From Deltaproteobacteria bacterium (GTDB lineage: Bacteria; Myxococcota; XYA12-FULL-58-9), in the NCBI GenBank assembly GCA_016218825.1, contig JACRCV010000056.1:160416-224415 (forward strand): DNA of 64,000 nt. Direction: 5' to 3'. Below the pieces are notes generated by a model. That model was not told where the DNA came from and did no database searches. It saw only the letters and a list, made by a program, of their open reading frames with translations. The position numbers were made by a program, and so were the translations under genes. This document shows positions 2,632 through 16,805 of this stretch, one piece after another. The stretch's first letter is position 1, and every line of letters begins with the position of its first letter.

Positions 2632-4137
2632 ATGCGCCGGCTCACGATTCCATGGTCGGGGGTGTTGGCCGCGGTCGGCCTCGGCCTCACCGCCTGCGGT
2701 GCGCTGCCGGCAGACGGGCTCGATGGCCCGGTCTTGGCGACCGAGGCCCTCAGGCCCGACAACCCGGCGCGCGAGTCGTTCGGTTTCGACCCCGGCGACA
2801 CGGTCGAGATCCTGGACTCGCCGGGTGGCGATTTCCGGGTTCATTACGCCCGCGCCGGGCGGTGCGCGGTACCGGACACCGACCTGGACGGCAACCTGAT
2901 GCCGGACTACGTCGAAGACACCGCGGCGGTCTACGACGACGTCTTGACCTTCTACCGCGACGCCCTCGGCTTTCGGGCGCCGCTCGCCGACGACGGCATC
3001 GGCGACAACGGCGGCGACGGCCGCTTCGACGTCTATCTGGTGGACTTCGGCGGCAACTCCGACGGCATGCTCGGGGTCGACGGCTGCCTGAACGCCAACC
3101 CGGATCAGTGCGTCGGCTACATGCTGCAGGAGAACGACTTCGCCCGCTCGCAAGACTACCGCTATTCGTCGCTCCACGTCGCGACCCAGATCCTCGCCAG
3201 CCACGAGTTCTTCCACGCGGTCCAGAACGCCTACGACGGCTATCAGGGCTCGATCTTGAGCGAAGGCACGGCCACCTGGGCGTCCGAAGCCTACAACGCA
3301 GCGCTGCCGGATTTCGAGAAAGCGATCCAGGCGTACATGGACAACCCCGACCAGCCGATCGACACGCCGATGCCGGGCATGTCGTTCAATTACAGCACCG
3401 CGATCTTCTTCGAGTTCCTCGCCGAGCGGCTCGGACAAGACGCAGTCCGCAAGATCTATGAGGCGTCCGAGAACGGCGCCAACGGTGTGAGCGATCCGAG
3501 CTGGTTCGCGGCACTGCCCGACGTCATCTCGAGCTACGGCCAAGGCGCCTTCGACCGGATCTTCGTGGACTTCGCCACCTGGAACTTGTTCACCGGCAAC
3601 CGCGGCGACCCGGCCCAGAGCTACGCCCTGGGGCGCAGCTACCCGCGGGTGCGCCTCGACGTCGTCAGCCCGCCCTATGTCGATGCGTTGGTACGGATAC
3701 CCCACGCCGCCACCAAGTACTTCAGCGTCGTGCCGTCGGGCCGGACCGAGATGACCGCGGCGCTCGTCGGCCCCCCCGAAGAGCTCGCCGATCTCCACCT
3801 GCGCCTCACCGTGGAGCGTGGCCCGGCCTTCGAAACGCCGCTCGCCGTCCAAGATCTCCAGGCCGGCACCGAGGTCGTGAGCACCGACCTCGCCCGGACC
3901 TTCATCGTCTTCCTCGTCAACACCTCGACCGGCGGCACGAGCCGGCGCCCCGGGTTGTGCATCGGCACGCCCGCCGAGGTCACGGCGTGCAAGGCACAGC
4001 TCAACCCGACGCCGCCGCCACCACCTACGGAAGAAGATCCGGGCGGCTGCCTGAGCGCCACACCGACCGGGCCGCTCGCCGTCGTGTCCTCTGTCGCCCT
4101 GTTGTGGCGGCGACGCCGCGGCCGGCGTCAGTCGTAG
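2632..4137 (+). CDS. Secreted HExxH zinc metalloprotease with MYXO-CTERM-like tail
   Basis: Signal peptide plus lipobox (LGLTACG). HEFFH zinc-binding motif (LASHEFFHAVQ). C-terminal GGC, hydrophobic segment, then RRRRGRRQS. This is the C-terminal part of the artefactual 169..4137 long ORF; the real start is the ATG at 2632. Confidence 0.7.
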   Translation: MRRLTIPWSGVLAAVGLGLTACGALPADGLDGPVLATEALRPDNPARESFGFDPGDTVEILDSPGGDFRVHYARAGRCAVPDTDLDGNLMPDYVEDTAAVYDDVLTFYRDALGFRAPLADDGIGDNGGDGRFDVYLVDFGGNSDGMLGVDGCLNANPDQCVGYMLQENDFARSQDYRYSSLHVATQILASHEFFHAVQNAYDGYQGSILSEGTATWASEAYNAALPDFEKAIQAYMDNPDQPIDTPMPGMSFNYSTAIFFEFLAERLGQDAVRKIYEASENGANGVSDPSWFAALPDVISSYGQGAFDRIFVDFATWNLFTGNRGDPAQSYALGRSYPRVRLDVVSPPYVDALVRIPHAATKYFSVVPSGRTEMTAALVGPPEELADLHLRLTVERGPAFETPLAVQDLQAGTEVVSTDLARTFIVFLVNTSTGGTSRRPGLCIGTPAEVTACKAQLNPTPPPPPTEEDPGGCLSATPTGPLAVVSSVALLWRRRRGRRQS

Positions 4138-5639
4138 CTGCCGAGCACCCACCACCGCGCCTTGTCGGGCGCGCCCGCCAAGCGTAGCCGCAGACCGCCC
4201 TGCAGCTCGACGTCGTAGAGATCGCAAGCCGGACCCGCGACCTCGGGCGGTTGCCACCACTCCTCGCCACGCCGAAACGGGCCGCGACAGGCGGTGATCG
4301 AACCGCGAAAGCTGCGACTCGCGATCGCCGCCGGCAACGCGCCCTGAACCAGCACCTCGACCTCGCAGGGCGGGCGGAGGCGCCGCAAGCTCGTCACCGG
4401 CGGGGTCACTTCGCCCCGAGGTGTTGGCGCCCGCGTCGAGGTCGCGACCGGCGTCAAGGTGAAGCGATCGTCGCCATAGGTGTCGAGCAGGCGCGGCGCA
4501 CCGATGCGCTCCGGGCCGCACAGCGCCTGCAGCCGGGCCACGGTGAGCGCGAGCTTGTCGGGCGCCGGGCGCGGGGCGGAGAACAACGCCAGCTGCACCG
4601 GCTGCAAGGACGCCGGCGTCGCGACGACGGCCACCTGGATCACGGGCGCCGGCAGCGGTGCCTCGCTGAGGTGCAGCCGGCAAAGGGCCAAGAGCGCCGG
4701 GCGCTCGCGGCTCGGCGCGCTCACCCGGACCAGACGCTCGAAGCGCTCGCCGCCGTCGGCGACGAAGGAGAGGCGGAGGTCGCCGCAGAGATAGCCGCGC
4801 GCCGCCAGCTGCACCAAGAGCCGACCGAGCAGCTCGTCGAGCACGGCGAGCAAGGGCTCGAGGTTGTCGAGCGCGTAGTCGAGGCTGAGGTCGGCGCCAA
4901 TGACGACCGGGGTCGCGGCCGGCTGCAGACCACCCCCCTCCTCCTCGCCGCGCGCGCGGCGCAAGAGCGAAAGCCCCGAAGGTCCGAGCTTGTCGCCCAC
5001 CCGTGCTGCCGGCAGCGCCAAGAGATCGGCGACCGTCGTCAAGCCGAAGCGCCGCAGGCGCAGCGCGAGGGCGGGCTCGGGTCGCAACGCCGCGAGGGGC
5101 AACCCGGCGACGAAGGCCTGCTCGGCCGCCGTCGTCTCGGCGACGATGCAAGTGTCCGCCGCGACATCGGCCGCGAGCCGCGCCAAGGTCTTGGTGCGGG
5201 CCACGCCGACGGTGACGACAAGTCCCGCGTGCCGCGCCTCGCAAAGCAGCAGCCGCGCCACCTCCGCCGGCGGGCCGACGAGACGATCGAGGCCGGCGAC
5301 GTCGGCGAACAGCCAGTGTTCATCGCCGGCGGTCTCGCGCTCGATCCGGGAGGAGTAGTGTTGCATCAGTGTCAGCAGCACCTCGGCGGCAGCCGCCTCC
5401 AAGACCGGATCGCGGGGGATGACGGTCAGCGCCGGGACGACGGCGCGCGCCTGGGCCACGGTGATCGGGGGACGGATCCCGAGGCGCGCGGCGGCCGGCG
5501 ACGCCGCCCAGATCCGATCACCGCCGCCGGTGAGGACGGCGCCGACGATCGCCAGCACCTCGTCGCGCCGCGTCGGCGCGGTGCGCCAAAGCGCCTGGAG
5601 CGAGAAGGTCGGGGCGCGCAGGGCAGCGACGCGCGTCAT
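4128..5639 (-). CDS. imuB: ImuB, inactive Y-family polymerase-like subunit of the error-prone ImuA-ImuB-DnaE2 mutasome
   Basis: The protein begins MTRVAALRAPTFSLQALW. The central LPLAALRPEPALALRLRRFGLTTVADLLALP block and overall layout match ImuB proteins (Y-family fold). Start ATG at 5639, 8 bp after the imuA stop. Confidence 0.8.
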   Translation of the reverse strand: MTRVAALRAPTFSLQALWRTAPTRRDEVLAIVGAVLTGGGDRIWAASPAAARLGIRPPITVAQARAVVPALTVIPRDPVLEAAAAEVLLTLMQHYSSRIERETAGDEHWLFADVAGLDRLVGPPAEVARLLLCEARHAGLVVTVGVARTKTLARLAADVAADTCIVAETTAAEQAFVAGLPLAALRPEPALALRLRRFGLTTVADLLALPAARVGDKLGPSGLSLLRRARGEEEGGGLQPAATPVVIGADLSLDYALDNLEPLLAVLDELLGRLLVQLAARGYLCGDLRLSFVADGGERFERLVRVSAPSRERPALLALCRLHLSEAPLPAPVIQVAVVATPASLQPVQLALFSAPRPAPDKLALTVARLQALCGPERIGAPRLLDTYGDDRFTLTPVATSTRAPTPRGEVTPPVTSLRRLRPPCEVEVLVQGALPAAIASRSFRGSITACRGPFRRGEEWWQPPEVAGPACDLYDVELQGGLRLRLAGAPDKARWWVLGSYD

Positions 5640-5647
5640 GCGCCGCC

Positions 5648-6304
5648 TCAATCGACCGCCGCCGCCAGCGGCAAGAGCACCTCCGCCCCCGGCGTGCCGT
5701 GCCATTGGCGCGTCACCCGCACCCGCAGCCGCGCCACCTCCGGCGCCCAGGCGCACTCGAGGCGCAGCGCCGCCATGGCCCCGGCGCGCGCGTCCCCCGA
5801 CAAGAGCAGCAACACCGTGCGGCTGCGCTCGAGGCGATGCTTGAGCCGCACCCAGGTGCCGAGGTGACAAAGCGGGGCGCGGCGGCCGCCCTCCGCGACG
5901 TCGAGCGCCAACGCCGCGAAGCCGCCCGCCGCCACCACCTGGCCGGTCGCCGCCAGCGCCTGCGCCACGGCGTCAGCGCCGCGCGGCCGGATCCAGAGCA
6001 ACTGTTCGAGCACGACCCCGGAGGCTTGGGCGCTCAACGGGTCCAAGGTGTCGAAGGGATCGATCCAGGCGACGAGGGCGCCGGCCGCGGTCACGGCCGC
6101 CATCGCCCCCAGCGCCAACGACGTCCGGCCGCTGCTCGCCCGCCCGACGATCTCGGTGATCGCGCCGCACGGGAGCCCTCCCTGGAGCAGCGCGTCGAGG
6201 GGCCGCTGACCGGTGCTGAGCCTCTCGGCACGCAGCGCCGGCGCCGGGCGCAGCGCCGGGTGGGCTTTGAGCCACGCCAAGATCGAAGGAGAAGAAACTG
6301 CCAT
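5648..6304 (-). CDS. imuA: ImuA, RecA/SulA-fold SOS mutagenesis protein
   Basis: 218-aa protein with LSTGQRPLDALLQGGLPCGAITEIVG P-loop-like region typical of ImuA. Immediately upstream of imuB. A LexA-box-like palindrome sits 12 bp upstream. Confidence 0.75.
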   Translation of the reverse strand: MAVSSPSILAWLKAHPALRPAPALRAERLSTGQRPLDALLQGGLPCGAITEIVGRASSGRTSLALGAMAAVTAAGALVAWIDPFDTLDPLSAQASGVVLEQLLWIRPRGADAVAQALAATGQVVAAGGFAALALDVAEGGRRAPLCHLGTWVRLKHRLERSRTVLLLLSGDARAGAMAALRLECAWAPEVARLRVRVTRQWHGTPGAEVLLPLAAAVD

Positions 6305-6315
6305 GGCACGCCAAC

Positions 6316-6332
6316 CCTGAACACCCGTACAG
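6316..6332 (-). promoter_or_regulatory. Putative LexA (SOS) box upstream of imuA
   Basis: On the gene strand it reads CTGTACGGGTGTTCAGG, a CTGT-N8-nCAG palindrome. It matches 16 of 17 positions of the Myxococcus xanthus LexA box consensus CTRHAMRYBYGTTCAGS as I recall it. It lies 12 bp upstream of the imuA ATG. Confidence 0.55.
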
Positions 6333-6372
6333 TATCAAGGGCGCCGCCCGTTGCCAAGGCCCAAGGGCGCGG

Positions 6373-6930
6373 CTATTCGCCCACGTGCTCGATGCTGAGA
6401 CACGCCGCCTCGCCGTCTCGGAGGGTCACCACGAAGAGATCGCCATACTGCTGGTCCTCGATGCTGACCGACGTGCCGACGCCCAGGACCGCGAGGATCT
6501 CGGGGATGGTGTTCGAGTGCCCGACCACCAGCACCTGAGCGCCCCGGTGACGCTCTCGCAGGATCTGCACCAGACGGGTCGAGTCCGTCGCCGGCAGCTC
6601 TTGCGGCGTGAGCCCGAGCCGGGACGCCAGCGGCGCCGCGGTCTCTCCGGTGCGCTGGTACTGGGTCACGTAGATCGCTGCGAGGCCCACGGACGCCAGG
6701 CGCTCCTCGAGTGCCCGGGCCCGCGCCCGGCCCTTTGCCGACAGCGGCGGATCGTCGTCCCCGTCTCGCACCCGCGCCTTCTCCGCGTGCCGCACCAGGT
6801 AGACGACGCTGACGCCGCCGGCCTTGCGGCGCGACGCCACCTCGCGGCGCTCGTTCTGCGCCGGCGCGCTGCAGCCGATCGCGCACAGCAGCAGCAACAA
6901 CAACGACACGGCGTGCGCCCTACGCGACAT
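6373..6930 (-). CDS. Histidine phosphatase family protein (SixA/phosphoglycerate-mutase-like), lipoprotein signal peptide
   Basis: RHAEK catalytic motif (VYLVRHAEK) and the second His (VVGHSNTIPE). N-terminal MSRRAHAVSLLLLLLCAIGCSA signal. Start ATG at 6930 overlaps the end of the upstream exonuclease gene by 11 bp. Confidence 0.75.
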   Translation of the reverse strand: MSRRAHAVSLLLLLLCAIGCSAPAQNERREVASRRKAGGVSVVYLVRHAEKARVRDGDDDPPLSAKGRARARALEERLASVGLAAIYVTQYQRTGETAAPLASRLGLTPQELPATDSTRLVQILRERHRGAQVLVVGHSNTIPEILAVLGVGTSVSIEDQQYGDLFVVTLRDGEAACLSIEHVGE

Positions 6931-8257
6931 CGTGTCGCTCCCGTTGGCGCGCGCGGCGGCGCTGCAGGCGCTCGAGCCGGCGGGTCCGCTTCGCCGCGCC
7001 CTCGGCCGCGAGGGTGTGCTCGGCATGTGAGACGGCGCGGTCGAGATCGCCGAGCCGATGCTCGTAGAGCTTGGCGAGCCCGAGATGGATCGACGCCGCC
7101 GCCGTCCCGTCGGGGGCGGCGTAGGTCAAGGCGCGGTGCAGCGCGTCGGCCGCCGCTTGATAGGCGTGACCGCGCACCTCGAGCACCGCCACCAGCCGCA
7201 ACGCCGACACCGCGATCTCCGCTCGGCCCGCGAGCGCCACCTCGGCGAAGCGCCGGGCACGCGCGCCGTCATCGTTGCGCAACGCCAGCCGCGCGAAGCC
7301 CAGGGCCTCGTGAGGCGCGATGCGCTCGTTCACCCCGGCAAAGCCGGTCGCGAGCCGGTTCAAGAGCGCCGGCAGCGCCAGGATGTCCTGGACGTTGTGC
7401 TCCAACACCGGCTGCAACAGGCCGCCGTCGCCGGTCTTCAGGAAGCGCCAATAGAGCGGCGGGATCGAGGCGCCGTCGATGTCGTCGGCGCGCGACAGCC
7501 CCAGGACCTCCTCCTCGACGCTCTTCAGCCGCAGGCTCAAGAGGTGGCGGCGATAGACGCGCCGGACGGTGTGCAGCAGATCCAGGTGCGCGGGCCTGGG
7601 CGCCGCGAGGCGGTTCATGATGAAGCGGGTGCGCAACAGCGGCCAGTCGAAGCTCTTGCCGTTGAAGCTGACGATCGCCGAGGCCGCGGCGAGGCGCGCC
7701 GCCAGCCGACAGAGGAGCGGCCCCTCGTCACTGAGGCGGGAGAGGAGGAGCTGCTCCACCACGAAGGCGCCGCCTTCGAACCATCCGAGCCCGACGAGAA
7801 ACGCCAGGGTCCCGGTGCCGCCGGCGAGCCCCGTGGTCTCGGTGTCGAGGTAGAGGAAGCGCTGCGGATCGAGCGCCGCCAACGCCGGATCCAGCGCCAG
7901 CGCCGCGACCAGCGGCCCATCGCCGACGCCACCCACGGCGATCTCCTGCCGCCCGTGCCGGTGGCTCGCCGGGAACGCGTGCCGCACCACCTGCACCGCG
8001 CCTTCGGCTTCGAGCTCGAGCGCCCCGGGGAGGTCGTGGAGCTCGGCGGCCCGCGCCGGCCGATAGGTCCGGGTCTCGCGCGCCACGCCCTTCGCGGTCA
8101 TCTCGGCGAGACGGGCCTTGAGGCGGCCGAGGCGCTCCGCCTGCGACAACGGCGCCAGCGTCTCCGCGACGCAGGCCGTGGCATCCCCCGGCGCCGCGGC
8201 GCCGGGACTAGCGGGACCCGGCGGGCCGAGGCGCGCGAGCTTCTGCCGCAAGTCCAT
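6920..8257 (-). CDS. YprB/MrfB-like RNase-H-fold 3'-5' exonuclease with TPR-like C-terminal region
   Basis: DEDD-type exonuclease motif I (FLYLDTETTGLAGGTGTLAFLVGLGW). Has the same two-domain layout (exonuclease domain plus TPR-like tail) I recall for Bacillus MrfB/YprB. Positioned 9 bp downstream of the DUF1998 helicase gene. Confidence 0.75.
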   Translation of the reverse strand: MDLRQKLARLGPPGPASPGAAAPGDATACVAETLAPLSQAERLGRLKARLAEMTAKGVARETRTYRPARAAELHDLPGALELEAEGAVQVVRHAFPASHRHGRQEIAVGGVGDGPLVAALALDPALAALDPQRFLYLDTETTGLAGGTGTLAFLVGLGWFEGGAFVVEQLLLSRLSDEGPLLCRLAARLAAASAIVSFNGKSFDWPLLRTRFIMNRLAAPRPAHLDLLHTVRRVYRRHLLSLRLKSVEEEVLGLSRADDIDGASIPPLYWRFLKTGDGGLLQPVLEHNVQDILALPALLNRLATGFAGVNERIAPHEALGFARLALRNDDGARARRFAEVALAGRAEIAVSALRLVAVLEVRGHAYQAAADALHRALTYAAPDGTAAASIHLGLAKLYEHRLGDLDRAVSHAEHTLAAEGAAKRTRRLERLQRRRARQRERHDVA

Positions 8258-8266
8258 GCGCCTACC

Positions 8267-10699
8267 TCACGCGGTTCGCGGCACGCCGAGAGCGCCGAGA
8301 AGCGCCAGCGCGATCTCTTTGCGCGAGCCGCTCGTGGTCTCGCCGCCGTCGACCACGACGCCCACCGTCGGCCCGACGCAGGCGGGGCAGCCGCCGTCAC
8401 AGGCGCAGCTCTCGATGATGGTGCGGGCACGCACCAAGAGCACGTCCTTCTCGACGAACAGCCGCTCGGCGAGGCCGACGCCCCCGGGGACGTGGTCGTA
8501 GAGGAACAGCGTCGGGTTGAACCCGGCGCCGCCGGCGTCCTTGTGCGCCGGAACGCCGTCCCCTTCGCCCTCCCCCAAGGTCCAGCCGAGGTCGCGGCCG
8601 TCGGTCATCAAGCCGACCGTCGCCACGGTGTGCAGCGCGTGGCCGATGCCGCGGATCGCGTCGATCACCGCCGGCCGGGGTGCCGCCTGGGCGGCGACCG
8701 CGCTCTCTGCCACCGTCAGCCAGAAGGCCGTGGTGTGCATTTGGATCTCGGGGAGCCGGACGTCGCCGTAACCGACGTTCTCGTGCGAGTGGAACTTGAT
8801 CTTCTTGTAGCCGACGACCTTCTCGACGACGCTGACGTCGCCGGCGCCGGCGCGGAGCGCCTCGGCGCACCACGGCAGCGGCGCGCGGTTGTCCTCCTTG
8901 ATGACCGCGACCTTGGTGTAGGTCATCGCGGTGGTGTAGTAGTCGGGCTCGACCTTGCGCACGTAGGCCTTGTGGTTGTCGAGGTCGAGCTTCTCCACCT
9001 GATACTGCTCGCCGTCCTGCTGGTAGATCGCCTGCTCGTGCAGCATCGTGTGGCTGCTCTTCCAATCGAGCTCGGCTATTGCGAGGTCGCGCTCGACGTC
9101 GATGATGACGATGTTGTCCCAACCGACGCTGCGCAGCGACACGTGGTTCGCGGGATAGCTCTCGGAGGACCAGTGGTACAACGCCTTGCCGGTCGTGGTC
9201 GCGGCGCGGTGCAAGAGCTCGTGCTCTGTGAGGTACTGCAACGCCGCGCTGACGTCGTCGGGCGACAAGTCGCGAAAGCCGTCGCCTTCGGCAAACGGCA
9301 GCTCGAACGCGGCGCACTTCAGGTGCTGCACCAGGATCTCGACGTTGTCCGGGTCGATGCGCGCCTGCTCGATGGCGGCGCCGACCAGGGTCGCGGGGAG
9401 GGTCGCGAAGTATTGGTCGAGGGGGGCGCTCGAGGCGACGAGCAGCGCCAGCGACCGCTCGCCGCGGCGGCCGCCGCGGCCGAAGCGCTGCCAGAGCGCC
9501 GCCATGCTCCCCGGATAGCCGGCGCAGACGACCGCGTCGAGCATGCCGATGTCGATGCCGAGCTCCAGGGCGTTGGTCGCGACCACGCAGCGGATAGCGC
9601 CGGCCCGAAGGCCGTTCTCGATGTCGCGCCTGGTGCCCGGCAGGTAGCCGCCCCGATACCCCTGGATGAGCGCCGGATCGATCGAGTCGGTGGCCGCCGC
9701 GTCGCGCAGGTACTTCAACATCACCTCGACGGTGCTGCGGCTCTGGGCGAACACCAAGGTCGGCACCTTGGCGCGGATCAGGTCGGTCACGAGGCGGACG
9801 GCGCTCTTGACGTAGCTGGCGCGAATGCCGAGCTCGCGGTTGACGATCGGCGGGTTGTAGACCAACACCTGGCGCTCGCCCTGCGGCGCGCCGCTCTCGC
9901 ATATCAACAGCGCCTCGCGGCCGATCAGCCGTGCCGCGTGCTCCCGGGGGTTGCCGACGGTCGCCGAGGCCATCAAGAACACCGGCGCCGAGCCGTGGAA
10001 CGCCGCGACCCGCGACAGGCGCCGCAACAGGTTCGCGAGGTGCGAGCCGAGGACGCCGCGGTAGGTGTGCAGCTCGTCGATCACCACGTAGCGCAGGTTC
10101 GCGAACAGCCGCGCCCAGGCGGTGTGGTGCGGCAGGATGCCGGTGTGCAGCATGTCGGGGTTGGTGAGGAGCACGGCGCACTTCTCCCGCGCCGCGCGGC
10201 GGGCGTCGCCGGGGGTGTCGCCGTCATAGGTGATCGCGCCTTGGTCGAGCCCGGCGTCGGCCAAGAGCGCCCGCAGGCTCACCTCTTGGTCCCGGGACAG
10301 CGCCTTGGTCGGAAACAGGTAGAGCGCCCGGGCGTTCGGATCTTCGGCGAGCGCCTGCAGCACCGGCAGGTGGTAGCACAGGCTCTTGCCCGACGCGGTC
10401 GGGGTCGCGATCACCAGATCGCGTCCGGCCACGGCCGCCCGATAGGCGCGCGCCTGATGCGAGAACAAGCGCTCGATGCCGCGCCTCGCCAACGCGCCGA
10501 CGAGCGCGGCGCTCACCCCCTCGGGGATCGGATCGAGCACCGCCGGCGTCGCGGACAGCGCCAGGTCCAGCACCAGGTTGCCTTTCACCTTCGGCGTGTT
10601 GCGCCAGTCACGAAGCACCGCGTCGACCCCGTGCGCCCCGGCCCACGGTGTCGGTCGCGGCCGCTCGAAGCCCCACTCACCCGCTCTGTCGTCCGTCAT
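8267..10699 (-). CDS. MrfA/YprA-like DEAD/DEAH-box ATP-dependent helicase with C-terminal Cys4 DUF1998 domain
   Basis: Walker A (ATPTASGKSLCY), DExH (VIDELHTYRG) and SAT (MASATVGNP) motifs. C-terminal Cys4 cluster (CACDGGCPACVGP). The real start is the ATG at 10699 (MTDDRAGEWGF); the track ORF extends a further 194 codons upstream in Arg/Gly-rich sequence without protein character. Confidence 0.85.
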   Translation of the reverse strand: MTDDRAGEWGFERPRPTPWAGAHGVDAVLRDWRNTPKVKGNLVLDLALSATPAVLDPIPEGVSAALVGALARRGIERLFSHQARAYRAAVAGRDLVIATPTASGKSLCYHLPVLQALAEDPNARALYLFPTKALSRDQEVSLRALLADAGLDQGAITYDGDTPGDARRAAREKCAVLLTNPDMLHTGILPHHTAWARLFANLRYVVIDELHTYRGVLGSHLANLLRRLSRVAAFHGSAPVFLMASATVGNPREHAARLIGREALLICESGAPQGERQVLVYNPPIVNRELGIRASYVKSAVRLVTDLIRAKVPTLVFAQSRSTVEVMLKYLRDAAATDSIDPALIQGYRGGYLPGTRRDIENGLRAGAIRCVVATNALELGIDIGMLDAVVCAGYPGSMAALWQRFGRGGRRGERSLALLVASSAPLDQYFATLPATLVGAAIEQARIDPDNVEILVQHLKCAAFELPFAEGDGFRDLSPDDVSAALQYLTEHELLHRAATTTGKALYHWSSESYPANHVSLRSVGWDNIVIIDVERDLAIAELDWKSSHTMLHEQAIYQQDGEQYQVEKLDLDNHKAYVRKVEPDYYTTAMTYTKVAVIKEDNRAPLPWCAEALRAGAGDVSVVEKVVGYKKIKFHSHENVGYGDVRLPEIQMHTTAFWLTVAESAVAAQAAPRPAVIDAIRGIGHALHTVATVGLMTDGRDLGWTLGEGEGDGVPAHKDAGGAGFNPTLFLYDHVPGGVGLAERLFVEKDVLLVRARTIIESCACDGGCPACVGPTVGVVVDGGETTSGSRKEIALALLGALGVPRTA

Positions 10700-10707
10700 G
10701 CGCGCCA

Positions 10708-10723
10708 CTGTACGGATGTACAC
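10708..10723. promoter_or_regulatory. Second LexA-box-like palindrome immediately upstream of the helicase start
   Basis: CTGTACGGATGTACAC is identical at 13 of 16 positions to the imuA box (CTGTACGGGTGTTCAG). It is CTGT-N8-ACAC with 5 of 6 dyad symmetry between the outer half-sites. It lies 9 bp upstream of the helicase ATG. Confidence 0.3.
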
Positions 10724-10752
10724 CTGCCCTTGGCAAGTCTCTTCGTGACGCC

Positions 10753-11226
10753 TCAGCCGGAGCCGGCGCGGCGCGGGGTCTCGAGATCGGCCGAGTCGAT
10801 GACCAGGGTCACCGGACCGTCGTTCGTGAGCTCCACCTGCATCATCGCGCCAAACTCGCCCTCGAAGACCGGGACACCGGTGCCGCGCAGCACGGCGCTG
10901 AAATGCGCGCACAGGCTGCGGGCGCGGTCCGGGGCCTCGGCGTCGCCGAAGTACGGTCGCCGGCCGCGGCGGACGTCGGCGAACAGCGTGAACTGACTCA
11001 CCACCAAGATCGCCCCACCGATCTCGGCGAGCCCGAGGTTCGTCCGCCCGGCGTCGTCGGCAAACAGCCGCAGGCTGACGAGCTTCTCGGCGAGCGCCTT
11101 GGCGCGCGCCTCGTCGTCGCCCTTGGCGACGCCGAGCAGCACCAACAGGCCGCGCTCGATCGCCGCGACGACCCGCGCCTCGACGAGGACCCGCGCCTGA
11201 CTCACCCGCTGCACGACCGCGCGCAT
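10753..11226 (-). CDS. dtd: D-aminoacyl-tRNA deacylase
   Basis: Begins MRAVVQRVSQARV and contains the SQFTL motif. 157 aa, the typical Dtd length and signature. Start ATG at 11226. Confidence 0.85.
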   Translation of the reverse strand: MRAVVQRVSQARVLVEARVVAAIERGLLVLLGVAKGDDEARAKALAEKLVSLRLFADDAGRTNLGLAEIGGAILVVSQFTLFADVRRGRRPYFGDAEAPDRARSLCAHFSAVLRGTGVPVFEGEFGAMMQVELTNDGPVTLVIDSADLETPRRAGSG

Positions 11227-11338
11227 CTCGCCCTCCGGCTCCGGTCGCCTCGAGCCAACCAGCTTTGGCCACCGCCGGCAAGCGCCTCGGCTTGCAATCG
11301 TCAGGCGCAGTCGGTATCGAAAGCTCGAGAGGTCACCC

Positions 11339-12328
11339 GTGTCGTCGCGCCGCCTCGCACCATGGCTCGTCATCGTCGTCGGGGTCGTCCTCGCCGCGAG
11401 CGGCTGCGCGGCGCTCGAGGAGATGTGGGCGAGCATCGCCGGCCCGCCGCCGCAGGGAGACGCGCAGCGGGAGGTCACCGACAGTGAACGGCGCGCGCCG
11501 ATCCTGCTGTTGCACGGCATGGCGGGCTTCGACGCCGTCATCGGCGTCGAGTACTTCTACAAGGTCCCGGAGGCGCTCACCACCGACGGCCACGCGGTCG
11601 TCGCCGCCGTCGTCGATCCCTTCAACTCCGTCGCCCGCCGCGCCGAGCAGGTGGCGACGCAGCTCGACAAGGTCCTGCTCGCCACCGGCGCCAGAGGCGC
11701 GCACCTGATCGCCCACAGTCAGGGCGGCTTGGACGCGCGCTACCTCATCTCGACCTTGGGCTACGGTGACCGGGTGTTGTCCTTGACCACGATCGCGACG
11801 CCGCACCACGGCACGCTGATCGCCGACGCCGCGCTCGGCTGGGTGCCGAACCTCCCGGCCGAGGCCGACTACGCGTTCGCGCTCATCGACAAGCTCGGGC
11901 ACGGCGTCACCGGCACCGACGTGGATCTGCAGGCGCAGCTCTGGGGTCTGACAAGACGCTATGTCGAAGGGACCTTCAACCCGCAGAACCCCGACGATCC
12001 GCGGGTGCGCTACTACTCCTACGCCGGGGTCACGCAGGCCTGGCCCTTCGTGGATCGCGAGACCGTCGACATCGTCAACCCGGGGCTGCTCGCCTCCTAC
12101 CTCACGCTCAAGGCGCTCGAGGGCGAAAACGACGGGATGGTGTCGGTCAAGAGCGCCCGCTGGGGGGCCTTCCTCGGCGTGCTCGCCGCCGACCACATGG
12201 ACGAGGTCGGCCAACCGATGGGCGCCACCAGCAAGGCCTTCGACCACCTGGCCTTCTATCGCGCGCTGTCGCGCTTCGTGACCGGCGAGGGTCCGGCGCC
12301 GCGGCTCAGGAACCTCAAGGCGCCGTGA
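11339..12328 (+). CDS. Secreted alpha/beta-hydrolase triacylglycerol lipase (bacterial lipase family)
   Basis: Signal peptide with lipobox (VLAASGCAA). Oxyanion-hole region (LLLHGMAGF). Nucleophile elbow (IAHSQGGLDARY). Confidence 0.8.
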   Translation: MSSRRLAPWLVIVVGVVLAASGCAALEEMWASIAGPPPQGDAQREVTDSERRAPILLLHGMAGFDAVIGVEYFYKVPEALTTDGHAVVAAVVDPFNSVARRAEQVATQLDKVLLATGARGAHLIAHSQGGLDARYLISTLGYGDRVLSLTTIATPHHGTLIADAALGWVPNLPAEADYAFALIDKLGHGVTGTDVDLQAQLWGLTRRYVEGTFNPQNPDDPRVRYYSYAGVTQAWPFVDRETVDIVNPGLLASYLTLKALEGENDGMVSVKSARWGAFLGVLAADHMDEVGQPMGATSKAFDHLAFYRALSRFVTGEGPAPRLRNLKAP

Positions 12329-14542
12329 CCGTGAGACTGCCGGCCTCTGCCGGCGCGTACTGCTGCAGGTTCATCGCGCCGTCGGCGTCGCAGCACAGCC
12401 AGGTGGTGCCGCCGTCCATCGAGAAGCGCCACGCCCAGTCGTAGGTGCCGGGGACGTCGGGCGCCACCAGGATCGCCAGGTGCTCGTCGTTGACGCTCGA
12501 TGCCGGCCAGAGGTTGAAGACCCCCGAAGCACCCCAGCTCCAGTCGCCGGCGGTCGGCATCGAGGCGGGCGGGCCGTAGCCCACCTGCGACAACGGCGTC
12601 GGGCCGGCGCCCGCGGGCCCGGTCAGATCGACGCTGCCGGCGCGGCTCGCGAGCGCCGCGTGCACCTGTCCGTAGACGACCGCGGCCTCGCCCCGCCCGA
12701 GCGTCAGATCCTTGGACGGTGCCGGCAGCAACCGGCACCAATCGACGACGGCGCCGGCAGCCGGCGTGACGACGTCCAGGTTGAGCGCCAGCGACGCCTG
12801 GTAGGGATCGCCGTTCACCGCGCTGCCGCTGGTGTCGGCGATGAGCCACGGCCCGCCGTTCAGGCGCGCGCGCGCCGCCAGGTCATAGGGGTTGGCGATC
12901 ACGGGCGCGACCCCGCGCCAATCGTATTGATCGTCGGCCTGCACGCCGCCGCCGTCCACGTCACGAGCGTATTGCGCCGCGCTGTAGCTCCACGCCACCG
13001 TGCTCGGATCAGCACCCCGCGGGCCGACGCCCACCTGCACCTCGATGCCCGCGCCCTGACCGCCGCCCGGCGTCGAGCCGGCCTCGTAGATCTGCACCCG
13101 CGCCCCGATCGGCGCGCCGGGGCTGACGCGCGCCGCGTCCGGCGGCGTCACGATCCGCACCCAGTCGACCACCGGGGCGCTCACCAGGGCGTCGCCGAGC
13201 TTCGCGGGGTCGAACGTCATCGTGACCTCGTCGGTGTCGAGCCAGAGCCAGTGGGCGCCGGCGTCGAGGCTGGCGCGCGCCGCGTAGGCGTAGTGCCCGG
13301 CCGCGAGCGCCGGCAGCGCGACGACGTAGACGTCGTTGCTCGTCGCTTGGGCGTCACGCGCGTAGCCGGCGGCCTCGAGCTGCCAACCGCCGGCGTCGAT
13401 CGTCGGATCGGTCGCAGGTGGTCCGACGCCTACCTGCACCTCGATCCCCGGCCCTTGACCCGCGGCATCGGTGACCCCGGCCTTGTAGATCTCGATCTCG
13501 ATCTCCGGCCGCGCGCCCCCGGTCTCGAAGGCGACGGCGGGCGGGCGGAGCACACCCCAGTCGACGAGGTCGGTGACCACCGCGACCGTGAGCTTGCCGG
13601 CCTGGGCGGCCGTGTAACCCGAGAGCGCCGATCCGTCGCGATCGCAAAGCAGCCAGGCGCCGCCGCTCGCGAGCTTGAAACGCGCCGCGAAGTCATAGGG
13701 GCCGAGGACACCCGGCGCGACGAAGGTGGCGGCGAAGACATCGTTGTTGCCGTCGTCGCGGCCGAAGGAGAGCGGGCTCCAGGTCCAGCTGAGCTCGTCG
13801 GGGGTGCTGTCCCTCGGACCCACGCCGAGCTCGCCCACGAGGCTCGTCGGCGCACCACCGTCGGTGACCCCGGCCTCGTAAACGCTGGCCGCGGTCGCGA
13901 CCGACGCAGCGCCCGGAGCCAACGTCTGGGCCGGCGGCCCCTCCAGCCGACACCAATCGACCGCCGGCACCGGGGGCGGCGTGACCGTCAACGTGCCGCT
14001 GTCGGCGATCGCAAAGCCGTCACTCGTCCCAGCCCCGAGGTCGGCGTAGACCCACGGACCCGAGTAGAGCGCGAAGCGAAACGCGTAGCGGTAGGTGCCC
14101 GGCACCGCCGGCAAGGTCAGCGTGAGCTGGTACTCGTCGTTGGCGCCGTTGTCGACGTCGACGTTGAAGGCGGCGGGGGCCCACGCCCAGGCCGCGACCG
14201 GATCCGCCGCGCTGCCGAGCCCGCCTTCGGCCGTCACCCCCTGACCCCGGCCGGCGCCGTCGGTGATCCCTTGCTTGAAGACCCGGCCGTAGATGACGAC
14301 GGTGCTCTGGGTCTCGCCGCTGTGGCTCTCGGGGTGCTGCAATCGGGCCCACTCGATGCTCGGCACCACGACGGCATCGCCCGCGGCGCCCGAGTCGCCG
14401 GCGCGCCCGTCACCGTGCGGCCCCGGATCGGTCCCGGCGTCGAAGTCTCCGGGTTGAACCTTGACCGGCGGCGAATGGTCGCCGCTGCAACTCCACGCGA
14501 GCGCGACCACGACCACGAGGGCCCACGAGCCACGGCCTGACA
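12315..14542 (-). CDS. Large secreted (lipo)protein built from 5-6 tandem ~120-130-aa repeats of an unrecognised domain
   Basis: Start ATG at 14542 (MSGRGSWALVVVVALAWSCSG signal peptide). Repeats share VDWCRL/VDWVRI, YEAG(V/S)TDG, GQG.GIEVQVGVGP, ND.Y and G.Y.YA.R motifs. The track ORF 12315..15698 over-extends the 5' end. The antisense ORF 12480..14540 is an artefact. Confidence 0.65.
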
Positions 14543-14612
14543 TCGCGCACCTCCTTGCCCGGGCGCCGCCCTGGGCCGCCGGGGGTCGCCACCCTATCAC
14601 CAAAGCCTGCCG

Positions 14613-16805
14613 ATGGCTCGCGGCCGGGATCTTCCCTATACTCACCCCGGCATGCCGCCCGCCGATGGCCAACCGCTCAGCCGCATCCTCCGTGGCCAAC
14701 CGCTCCCGGCCGGGACCGCGATCGCCTGGGGCCTCAAGCTGGCGCAAACGTTGGCGCTCATCCACGACCACAGCAAGCTGCACCGCGACGTGCAGCCCTC
14801 GAACATCGTGATCGGCCGCGACGGCTCGATCCACCTCTTGGCCTCGAGCGTCGCCTCGGTCTCCGAGAGCCTCGAGGCCCCGACTCCGAGCGACGCCGGC
14901 GCCGCCCGCGCCGCCTGGCATCCGGCGGTCGACACCCCGGTCTTGATGGGGGCGCCGCCCTACATGAGCCCGGAGCAGGTCCAGGGCGAGCCGCTCGACG
15001 CGCGCAGCGACGTGTTCTCGCTCGGCGTCGTGCTCTACGAGATGACCACCGGCAAGCGCCCGTTCTCCGGCGCCACCAGCGCCGAGATCTTTCGCGACAT
15101 CGCCCGCGCCCAGCCGATCCCGCCGGCCGCGCTCGCGCCCGGGATCCCGCCGTCTTTGGAGCGGGTGATCCAGAGAGCGCTGGCGCCTGCCCGCCACGAC
15201 CGCTTCCAGGACGCCGGCGAGATGGCGCACGCTCTCGAGGAGTGCGCTCGCGCCCAAGAAGGCACGCCGTCGACGCAGCGCGGCCGCCGCCTCGGCGACC
15301 GCCCGCAACCGCCCGGCAAGCGCGCGCGATCGACGTTGCTCGCGACCGCGATCGGCGTCGCCGTCGCCGTCGCCGTCGTTCTGGCGGTCGTGATCTTTGG
15401 ACTCACGATCCTCGAGCCCGGCGCTGACGCGATGACGGTCATGCTCTTCCCCATCGAGGTGCGGCACGAATCGGCGGGCGCCGACCTGCTGGGCCGGTCG
15501 CTCGCCGAGGCGATCGCCGTCAACCTGGCGGAGGCTCGCCAGCTCCGGATCCTGCCGGTGCCGCAGGCCTCCGAGATCGAGGGGGTCGGAGCCCTGGGCC
15601 GCGCGGCGACCGCCCGCCGCCTCACCGCGGGGCGCTTGGTGTCGGGCGCGGTGACCCGGGAGCGCGGCAACGTTCACCTGACGCTGAGCCTGGTTCACAC
15701 CGTCGAGAACCGCATCCTCTGGGGAACGCAGATGGACGGCAGCGACGACGATCTGCCGGCGCTCACCGCCGCCGCCGCCCGCGCCGTCGCCCGCGAGCTC
15801 GGCGCGACCTTCCCGAAGCTGTACGACTACGTCGCCAACCTCTCCGGCGGACCGACCATGGCGGCGTCACCGGCGACCAGCGTCGCCCTGGGGGCGCTGC
15901 GCCGCGGCGAAATCCCGCCGCTGCTCCAAGCGACCGCGACCCTCGTCTCGACCTTCCCCGAGGAGGCCGACGCCCTGGCGCTCCGGGCGCACGCGCTCTT
16001 GCTCTCCTATGACGCCGACCGCCGCACCGCGAACCGCGACGCGCTCGAGGCCGCGCTCGCGGCGCTCGACGCCGTCGATCCCAAGAACCCCTACACCGCG
16101 TTCTACCGCGCCTACCTCTTCGCCCACGACAACCGGCCCGCCGACGCCATCAACCGCTACGCGGCGCTGCTCGGACGCGCCGACCTGACACCCGCGGCGC
16201 GGGCCTGGATCCTGCGCTATCGGGCGCTGGCGCGCACCAGCGTCGAGGGCCAGGCGGCGGCGCTCGAAGATCTGGAGACCGCGCTGCACCTCGACCCGGC
16301 GAGCGCTCGCACCTTCAACATCATGAGCGAGACCTTGCGCACCAACGGCCGCATCGAGGAGGCCGCGGTCCGCGCCCGCCAGGCGGTGGCGCTGATGCCG
16401 TCGTTCTGGCGCAACCATCAGAGCCTCGGCCTGGCGCTGTCGCGCCTCGGGCGCTGGAACGAGGCTGAAGAGGCCTTCGCCGCCGCCTGCGAGCTCGGGG
16501 ACGCGCAGGCGCCCTGCGCCCTGTTGGCGCTGGCGCTGTTTCGCACCGGCAACAAGACCCGGGCGCAGGAGGTCGCACAGCGCGCCGCGAAGCTCACCGA
16601 GGAGCCGACCGGGGCCTACAACCTCGCCTGCTACCACGCGCTCGCCGGCGACCGCGAGGCGGCGCTGCGCCTGCTGCGCCGCGCCAACGCCCTCGGCTTC
16701 GTCGATCCGAGCGCCGGCCAGGATCCGGATCTGGAGAACCTGCGCGCGATCCCGGAGTTCGCCGCGGTGCTCCGGCAGATCGAGGGCAAGACCCCGGCGC
16801 GCTGA
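14613..16805 (+). CDS. N-terminally truncated Hanks-type kinase-like membrane protein (pseudokinase C-lobe) + TM helix + TolB-N-like/TPR extracytoplasmic domain
   Basis: Has subdomain V-XI equivalents only: HRDVQPSN catalytic-loop remnant (Lys replaced by Gln), no DFG (LAS in its place), and an SPE (APE-like) motif. No Gly loop or VAIK in any frame upstream. TM segment LLATAIGVAVAVAVVLAVVIFGL, then TPR-like repeats. An alternative ATG is at 14652. Confidence 0.6.
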   Translation: MARGRDLPYTHPGMPPADGQPLSRILRGQPLPAGTAIAWGLKLAQTLALIHDHSKLHRDVQPSNIVIGRDGSIHLLASSVASVSESLEAPTPSDAGAARAAWHPAVDTPVLMGAPPYMSPEQVQGEPLDARSDVFSLGVVLYEMTTGKRPFSGATSAEIFRDIARAQPIPPAALAPGIPPSLERVIQRALAPARHDRFQDAGEMAHALEECARAQEGTPSTQRGRRLGDRPQPPGKRARSTLLATAIGVAVAVAVVLAVVIFGLTILEPGADAMTVMLFPIEVRHESAGADLLGRSLAEAIAVNLAEARQLRILPVPQASEIEGVGALGRAATARRLTAGRLVSGAVTRERGNVHLTLSLVHTVENRILWGTQMDGSDDDLPALTAAAARAVARELGATFPKLYDYVANLSGGPTMAASPATSVALGALRRGEIPPLLQATATLVSTFPEEADALALRAHALLLSYDADRRTANRDALEAALAALDAVDPKNPYTAFYRAYLFAHDNRPADAINRYAALLGRADLTPAARAWILRYRALARTSVEGQAAALEDLETALHLDPASARTFNIMSETLRTNGRIEEAAVRARQAVALMPSFWRNHQSLGLALSRLGRWNEAEEAFAAACELGDAQAPCALLALALFRTGNKTRAQEVAQRAAKLTEEPTGAYNLACYHALAGDREAALRLLRRANALGFVDPSAGQDPDLENLRAIPEFAAVLRQIEGKTPAR

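Follow-up and report, generated by a model that had tools for sequence, protein, structure and literature searches.

In Bacillus subtilis, the proteins MrfA and MrfB remove mitomycin-type bulky adducts independently of UvrABC. The two proteins, also designated YprA and YprB, have been described as a mitomycin-C repair pathway (Burby and Simmons), and structures are available for the system (6ZNP, 8UN9). In the papers available on Bacillus MrfAB no mention of LexA or SOS control was found, so that the remark in the initial annotation that these genes are reported not to be SOS-regulated in Bacillus could not be confirmed from them, and a search of the literature for a link of DUF1998 or yprA with LexA gave nothing relevant. 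Here, an mrfAB operon and its promoter are described from a stretch of contig JACRCV010000056.1 of a Deltaproteobacteria bacterium from the Myxococcota; this stretch, in its whole length of 64 kb, is called the window in the following. While the MrfAB system was already known, the new part is its regulatory assignment, as a probable direct target of LexA whose operator is merged with the -10 hexamer.

For the Myxococcota, LexA binding has been investigated in Myxococcus xanthus, with CTRHAMRYBYGTTCAGS as the consensus (Campoy 2003, cited in PMC9705874). The sites of lexA and recA2 were verified by gel shifts, which covered the lexA, recA2, recN and pafBC sites only (PMC9705874). With the strict consensus, full boxes were identified at lexA and recA2 only, and the other genes were classed as indirectly regulated, possibly via PafBC (PMC9705874). 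In the published view, direct control by LexA in M. xanthus is confined to five regulatory genes.

In the window, we consider it likely that the MrfA-MrfB operon lies behind a sigma-70 promoter with a LexA-type operator and is derepressed by DNA damage. Judged from its DNA sequence, mrfAB is probably an overlooked direct member of the SOS response of the Myxococcota. The features on which this reading is built are:

8267..10699, minus strand: mrfA, coding for a YprA-type superfamily 2 (SF2) DExH helicase of 810 amino acids with predicted 3'-5' DNA helicase activity (Pfam and alignment to PDB 6ZNP)
6920..8257, minus strand: mrfB, coding for a YprB-type DEDDh exonuclease of 445 amino acids with predicted 3'-5' exonuclease activity (PF13482, PDB 8UN9)
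10731..10736, minus strand: -35 hexamer TTGCCA (sigma-70 consensus scan)
10708..10723, no strand assigned: predicted LexA-type operator of 16 bp (matrix score 18.9 bits)
10707..10712, minus strand: -10 hexamer TACAGT, inside the right half-site of the operator (sigma-70 consensus scan)

The initial annotation had described a DUF1998 helicase and a DEDD exonuclease of the MrfA/MrfB type, and this was borne out. In MrfA, Pfam models identified DEAD (101.9 bits), Helicase_C (53.3 bits), WHD_HRQ1 (41 bits) and, at residues 686-775, the MZB domain (DUF1998, PF09369) with 52.5 bits versus a cut-off of 24.2. Models for Lhr, RecQ and Hel308 gave far lower scores, and the helicase is not of the Lhr or RecQ type. 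The motifs PTASGKS and VIDELH are present, with DELH as the DExH motif, followed at the C-terminus by SCACDGGCPACVGP, and the four cysteines in the arrangement CxC...CxxC (SCACDGGCPAC) are aligned with CPCHDGCPSC of the B. subtilis protein. With phmmer, a single stretch of MrfA (residues 51-779) was aligned to residues 30-734 of the B. subtilis YprA/MrfA chain in PDB 6ZNP with 670 bits, and this collinearity over the full length includes the winged-helix and the OB/CON region. TIGR03817 matched residues 49-776 with 631.8 bits, below its equivalog cut-off of 874.1. The gene has 811 codons counting the stop, a number that had been taken for the length of the protein, which is 810 amino acids long and identical to NCBI MBI5509278.1.

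The mrfB gene starts 9 bp past the mrfA stop codon, as annotated. MrfB matched RNase_H_2 (PF13482) with 123.9 bits and consists of a core at residues 135-302, an N-terminal extension and a helical C-terminal tail. In the PDB it matched 8UN9 only, the exonuclease core of MrfB (E=6e-30), and the alignment retains DTETTG, NGKSFDWP and HNVQD (H-x3-D), which are the DEDDh residues. For the C-terminal residues 300-445, the only Pfam match was a weak one to TPR_7 (E=2.6). Loci with DNA of homologues are labelled L with a number in this text, and for one further contig, P0002 (76% MrfA identity), which together with L044 represents the two closest relatives, gene order only was used. About 30 of the 33 Myxococcota loci from genomes have mrfB 3' of mrfA, and so do L036, L039 and L044. 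The window MrfA belongs to the repair branch of its family, which is defined by the association with MrfB; a role of the pair in adduct repair in this organism would be expected by analogy.

Between mrfA and the preceding gene, dtd, there is a gap of 53 bp. In this gap, the only sigma-70-like promoter within 5500..11600 (6.1 kb, both strands) was identified, TTGCCA-18-TACAGT at 10736..10707 on the minus strand, which agrees with the sigma-70 consensus at 9 of 12 positions. The palindrome that the initial annotation had placed upstream of the helicase is present in the same gap, at a distance of 8 bp, not 9 bp, from the mrfA ATG (10699). Its sequence is GTGTACATCCGTACAG in the coding direction and CTGTACGGATGTACAC on the plus strand, and it is best read in the coding orientation. 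It spans the final 10 nt of the spacer together with all but one of the six -10 bases; the window site is also written as GTGTACATCCGTACAGT. It matches the published M. xanthus LexA consensus at 14 of 17 positions. The annotated agreement with the box of the nearby imuA gene, 13 of 16 positions with the first eight identical, was reproduced, in a comparison that pairs opposite orientations relative to the genes. The palindrome pattern with up to two mismatches was matched three times in the window versus 0.43 expected. A search of the window for the strict E. coli-type motif CTGT-N8-ACAG gave no match, so that the palindrome is not of the E. coli motif class.

Transcription would start from this single sigma-70-type promoter. 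Because the palindrome lies across spacer and -10 element, a LexA dimer bound to it would occlude RNA polymerase. After DNA damage, RecA-stimulated self-cleavage of LexA would then allow transcription of mrfA, mrfB and a phosphatase gene located downstream. The mrfA ATG follows 7 nt past the -10 hexamer in the window, and a distance of 7-8 nt is common to the window, L011, L019, L021, L029, L039 and L044, with no Shine-Dalgarno sequence between; this spacing suggests that the mrfA mRNA may be leaderless in these seven loci. In Archangium-like mrfA loci, a longer leader with GGGAGAG is present instead.

Conservation of the promoter was investigated in a scan of species-representative genomes, which gave 33 Myxococcota mrfA loci with 57-68% MrfA identity and two loci from Anaerolineales. 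Thirty of these loci and the window (n=31) were aligned, anchored on GTACAGT, which is accordingly present in 31/31 as the anchor of the alignment. At the -35 position, TTG is kept 17-18 nt from TACAGT, and the flanks carry about zero information. Within the spacer, five positions are conserved, a T (30/31), a G (29/31), a C (31/31), a second C (29/31) and a second G (30/31). The spacer bases TG..C..C represent the left half-site and are not promoter elements. The conserved spacer bases track the published M. xanthus LexA box position by position, with the exceptions of positions 13 (A) and 17 (T), which together create the -10 hexamer. In the closest relatives with DNA, L040 (72% MrfA identity) and L044 (77%), nearly the same promoter, CTTGCCA...GTGCACATCCGTACAGT, was identified.

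When the M. xanthus consensus was relaxed to W at position 13 and searched with up to one mismatch on both strands of 487 kb (the window and 35 loci), 31 matches were obtained, all of them located upstream of mrfA or representing the imuA box of the window, as compared to 0-5 matches in shuffled sequences. Since position 13 had been relaxed after the data were seen, an independent matrix test was built. The weight matrix was derived from eight SOS sites outside mrfA, namely the gel-shift-verified lexA and recA2 sites of M. xanthus, five imuA sites and one dnaE2 site. It was scanned over 1.14 million positions, and for each mrfA start the best score within the surrounding 260 nt was taken. Apart from the training sites, the top ranks were almost entirely mrfA promoters. 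A site of at least 12 bits was present upstream of mrfA in all of the 38 Myxococcota loci examined, and 34 of them reached at least 15 bits, with about 24 distinct site variants counted by eye. Of random windows of 260 nt from the same loci, 0.5% reached at least 12 bits and about 0.2% at least 18.9 bits. Scores at background level, 1.2 and 4.5 bits, were obtained for the two loci from Anaerolineales. With its 18.9 bits, the window site scores higher than the verified recA2 site, which has 17.9 bits as a member of the training set. The palindrome is thus conserved in the orthologous loci of the Myxococcota and is of the same type as the imuA and dnaE2 boxes and the verified lexA and recA2 sites.

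Several variations of the mrfA box were seen among the loci. In the Archangium clade (L003, L005, L006, L008, L012, L022, L031 and L032), two extra CTG-N10-CAG elements flank the main box at a distance of about 20 nt, in a region from about 45 nt upstream to about 25 nt downstream of GTACAGT. One of them, CTGAAAACTTGAGCAG, overlaps the -35 hexamer, the other, CTGAACGGGAGAGCAG, the ribosome-binding site; both score below 12 bits with the matrix, and they could be auxiliary operators or a coincidence. The most divergent loci, L026 (6919-6934, labelled Polyangiaceae) and L033 (6964-6979, uncultured delta proteobacterium), contain the variant mrfA box CCGCACAT(T/C)TGTTTAG, the right half of which, GTTTAG, resembles the imuA box CTGTACATTTGTTTAG of L046. 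L042, a Logan contig with the helicase of the M. xanthus DK1622 type, carries the Illumina adapter ACACGACGCTCTTCCGATCT at positions 1-30 and begins within the helicase gene, an artefact of assembly that leaves the contig with no promoter.

Expression data from M. xanthus bear on the same gene. In the RNA-seq data of Sheng et al. 2021 (PMC9705874, Table S1), MXAN_RS18615, named 'helicase, YprA', was induced by ultraviolet light (UV) with a log2 fold change of 1.26 (p=2e-10), and in the lexA deletion its log2 fold change was 1.88 (p=8e-14). Regulation of mrfA has therefore been anticipated in part, since this gene was already listed there as LexA-dependent. In the Myxococcus loci L036-L038, GTATACGTCTGTACAGT is located 10 nt ahead of the mrfA ATG; it has 13 of 17 positions in common with the verified M. 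xanthus lexA box and three deviations from the strict consensus. The helicase of strain DK1622 (ABF87959.1) is in the same 90% cluster as the Myxococcus orthologue P0072. Two further helicase genes of M. xanthus, coding for the Lhr helicase MXAN_RS04795 and the DEAD/DEAH helicase MXAN_RS26715, showed the same two effects, induction by UV and derepression in the lexA mutant, and have no reported box (PMC9705874 Table S1); they may carry variant operators like that of mrfA.

A number of observations weigh against direct control of mrfA by LexA. The mrfA sites differ in a systematic way from the strict consensus, with A in place of T at position 13 and T in place of S at position 17, and in the lineage of the window position 1 is a G, which is also off the strict consensus. 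In M. xanthus, the 'helicase, YprA' gene is not among the genes with a box and was classed as indirectly regulated, and the recN site, which has two deviations, was not shifted by LexA in vitro (PMC9705874). MXAN_RS18615 is presumably the DK1622 gene of the P0072 cluster, an identification made by the published name only. Since pafBC is LexA-repressed in M. xanthus, the derepression of mrfA in the lexA mutant could be indirect. Further, imuA and imuB of M. xanthus responded to UV by induction but showed no derepression in the mutant without lexA (PMC9705874 Table S1), so that for other lineages we can only infer that an imuA box is a LexA box. In tblastn searches of the window and the fetched loci with E. 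coli lexA and recA as queries, no lexA was identified and the recA query matched only the RecA-fold imuA genes, so that the search gave no site of LexA autoregulation from this organism for reference. As for the function of the pair, homologues of MrfAB from Pseudomonas aeruginosa failed to complement B. subtilis.

Another damage regulator, such as a PafBC-like WYL activator or a LexA paralogue, might occupy the site and the LexA effect be indirect, which we regard as unlikely. Of the LexA-affected genes in M. xanthus, 51 were classed as indirect, and PafBC-type sequences were reported for 24 of them (PMC9705874). The mycobacterial motif TGTCGGTG-N8-TANNNT is matched in part, and in register, in L027 (GTTCGGTG, 6/8), in L036 (CCTCGGTA, 5/8) and in the window (GGCAGGTG, 5/8), and because a few loci reach 5-6 of 8 positions, this explanation keeps some weight. 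However, over 37 loci the modal match to TGTCGGTG was 2/8, with only the terminal TG kept, which is common to the LexA half-site, and the bases corresponding to N8 are strongly constrained, as the LexA consensus predicts. The dyad symmetry CTGTAC/GTACAG is typical for a dimeric repressor, and the box is of the type of the gel-shift-verified LexA sites. After this in-register test, the PafBC/RecA-NDp motif was rejected as the conserved feature of the mrfA promoters. For the two loci with GTTCGGTG-N8-TACAGT (L027, about 3530-3560) and CCTCGGTA-N8-TACAGT (L036, 5965-5995), a dual control by LexA and PafBC is possible.

It would also be conceivable that the conserved element is nothing but a strong housekeeping promoter, with mrfAB expressed constitutively and the palindrome arising as a by-product. 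TTGCCA-18-TACAGT is a good match to a sigma-70 promoter, and the bases that vary least, TTG and TACAGT, coincide exactly with the hexamers. The near-invariant spacer bases given above, which do not belong to the promoter and fit the LexA consensus, make this explanation improbable, as does the presence of the same type of 16-mer at imuA and dnaE2 in another register relative to the promoter. A constitutive operon is also at variance with the induction by UV and the derepression in the lexA deletion that were reported for the M. xanthus 'helicase, YprA'.

That the helicase and the nuclease form a YprA-family anti-phage defence system of the DISARM, Druantia or Dpd-like kind was rejected as hardly credible, since the PADLOC models BrxH, SngC, DruE, DpdF and DrmA do match MrfA, but only in the helicase core (about residues 75-430) and with no more than 150 bits, versus the 670 bits that its full-length alignment with B. 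subtilis MrfA gives, while the partner is an MrfB-type DEDDh exonuclease, neither MrfB nor the neighbouring genes have a PADLOC match, the adjacent genes include neither a methylase nor a PLD nuclease nor any other gene for defence, the pair is stable on the chromosome across the phylum, and a published paper places helicases associated with MrfB in the repair branch.

Direct repression of mrfAB by LexA remains the reading that we prefer. The genes and sites around the operon are:

6373..6930, minus strand: gene for a lipoprotein-type histidine phosphatase (His_Phos_1, SixA/PmrG-like) of 185 amino acids (PF00300, 65.9 bits)
6317..6332, no strand assigned: predicted LexA-type operator of imuA, with CTGTACGGGTGTTCAG(G) as its sequence in the imuA coding direction (consensus 16/17)
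5648..6304, minus strand: imuA, coding for a protein of 218 amino acids with a RecA fold, an accessory of the ImuA-ImuB-DnaE2 mutasome (Pfam RecA, 56.8 bits)
4128..5639, minus strand: imuB, coding for a Y-family polymerase-like protein of 503 amino acids (Pfam IMS; homologues named ImuB by JGI)
10753..11226, minus strand: dtd, coding for D-aminoacyl-tRNA deacylase (Pfam Tyr_Deacylase, 171 bits; TIGR00256, 173.8 bits)

The genes dtd, mrfA, mrfB, phosphatase, imuA and imuB are all located on the minus strand and are transcribed in this order. A gap of 68 bp separates the phosphatase gene from imuA, and the imuB ATG follows 8 nt after the imuA stop codon. The G+C content of the window is about 72%.

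ImuA matched the NCBIfam model ImuA_translesion (NF033429) with 52.3 bits, below the cut-off of 150, and the window ImuB is identical to P0135. The imuA box starts 13 nt ahead of the imuA ATG. Its matrix score of 24.3 bits is not independent, since this box is among the eight training sites. Boxes were also identified in front of imuA in L039 (CTGTACATTAGTACAG), L044 (CTGTACGGGCGTACAG), L045 (CTGTACATTTGTACAG) and L046 (CTGTACATTTGTTTAG). In L044, dnaE2 (9515-12634, 1031 amino acids) is convergent to imuB and carries the box CTATACAAATGTTCAG, which reads CTGAACATTTGTATAG on the dnaE2 coding strand, about 9 nt ahead of the ATG. The imuA boxes of L039, L044 and L045 and the dnaE2 box of L044 are of the GTACAG type. 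GTACAG, the mirror of the consensus left half CTGTAC, is thus a normal half-site at the mutagenesis cassette. The register of the imuA and dnaE2 16-mers relative to the promoter differs from that at mrfA. No dnaE2 was identified beside imuAB or anywhere else in the window. A metagenome scan with ImuB gave a single distant locus, L043. Its imuA-imuB-dnaE2 cassette, with an ImuB of 27% identity, contains a site of the same motif type, CTGAACGTTTGTTCAG at 2760-2775, about 35 nt upstream of imuA.

Since a box of this type also stands in front of imuA, the stretch of 6.6 kb from mrfA to imuB would consist of two adjacent SOS transcription units. The initial annotation had connected the recruitment of mrfAB to the LexA regulon with the neighbouring imuAB genes. 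The LexA-type site stands, but it is not special to this locus: adjacency of mrfAB and imuAB was identified in four contigs, the window, L044, the P0002 contig and L039, and is absent from the 33 Myxococcota genome loci. In L044 the gene order is the same with the phosphatase included, in the P0002 contig it is the same without the phosphatase, and in L039 one gene is located between the two pairs. LexA-type control of mrfA predates the linkage to imuAB and is independent of it, because the box is present in every Myxococcota locus examined and the adjacency in four related contigs only.

The phosphatase gene is located between mrfB and imuA, and its ATG overlaps the mrfB stop codon by 11 bp, as had been annotated together with its signal peptide, which is of the lipoprotein type (MSRRAHAVSLLLLLLCAIGC|S). 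The phosphatase of L044 (6692-7249) is 57% identical, is encoded at the same position and likewise has a signal peptide and a lipobox; in the P0002 contig the gene is absent. Elsewhere, homologues of the phosphatase are found in unrelated gene contexts, which is why the gene is best regarded as a passenger that is probably cotranscribed with mrfAB. A functional tie of the phosphatase to repair was considered and is unsupported by these contexts.

On the other side of the operon, the dtd stop codon is located 17 nt ahead of the mrfA -35 hexamer, and dtd is found beside mrfA also in L019, L044 and the P0002 contig. The region 3' of imuB consists of unrelated genes, a subtilase among them. Farther upstream, a long open reading frame (12315-15698, minus strand) has no Pfam match; it contains an internal lipoprotein-like start, MSGRGSWALVVVVALAWSCSGD, and apparent tandem repeats, each with a 'VDW.R' motif, and probably encodes a secreted repeat protein.

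The Myxococcota share their habitat with the producers of mitomycin-type antibiotics. With a conserved LexA-type operator, MrfAB would have a clear place in how this large phylum of soil bacteria responds to DNA damage. If direct control by LexA holds true, the SOS model of M. xanthus would have to be revised, and genes considered as 'indirectly' LexA-dependent may have variant operators. A wider proposal, which we offer tentatively and as a rather doubtful one, is that MrfAB has belonged to the core of the SOS response since the ancestor of the Myxococcota, under direct repression by LexA. Its operator would have become one with the -10 hexamer (GTACAGT), and the operon would have been arranged head-to-tail with imuAB in one lineage, where in L044 it faces a convergent dnaE2. 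Under this proposal, the fusion of the operator to the -10 hexamer would be the reason why searches with the strict consensus missed mrfA, and the five-gene view of direct LexA control in M. xanthus would be too narrow. The linkage to imuAB and dnaE2 would then suggest a hand-off, from excision or resection by MrfAB to gap filling by ImuA-ImuB-DnaE2.

Among the closest known systems, the defence helicases DrmA, DruE, DpdF/J and BrxH have the SF2 core and, in some cases, DUF1998 in common with the window MrfA, a similarity at the level of the core only. SftH of Mycobacterium smegmatis (TIGR03817, DECH, the actinobacterial YprA-type helicase) belongs to the same family and has the same domain order, with the window protein below the equivalog cut-off. 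To our knowledge, SftH is not paired with an MrfB gene. The LexA-regulated imuA-imuB-dnaE2 cassette (cited in bioRxiv 10.1101/2020.12.14.422803) resembles the genes next door, where imuA-imuB is preceded by a LexA-type box; in contrast to that cassette, dnaE2 is missing from the window, and mrfAB forms a separate upstream transcription unit. With the M. xanthus LexA box, the mrfA operator shares the length, the architecture, 14 of 17 positions and the location in the core promoter, whereas its right half-site is GTACAGT instead of GTTCAGS and doubles as the -10 hexamer. A further one of these systems is MrfAB of B. subtilis, with the same order of helicase and exonuclease, a full-length MrfA with winged-helix and Cys4 MZB regions, and an MrfB with a DEDDh core and a helical C-terminal region. 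Unlike its B. subtilis counterpart, the window MrfB has an N-terminal extension of about 130 amino acids and a TPR tail that is undetectable by sequence, and, unlike B. subtilis mrfAB, the window operon has a LexA-type operator, contains an added lipoprotein phosphatase gene and abuts imuAB.

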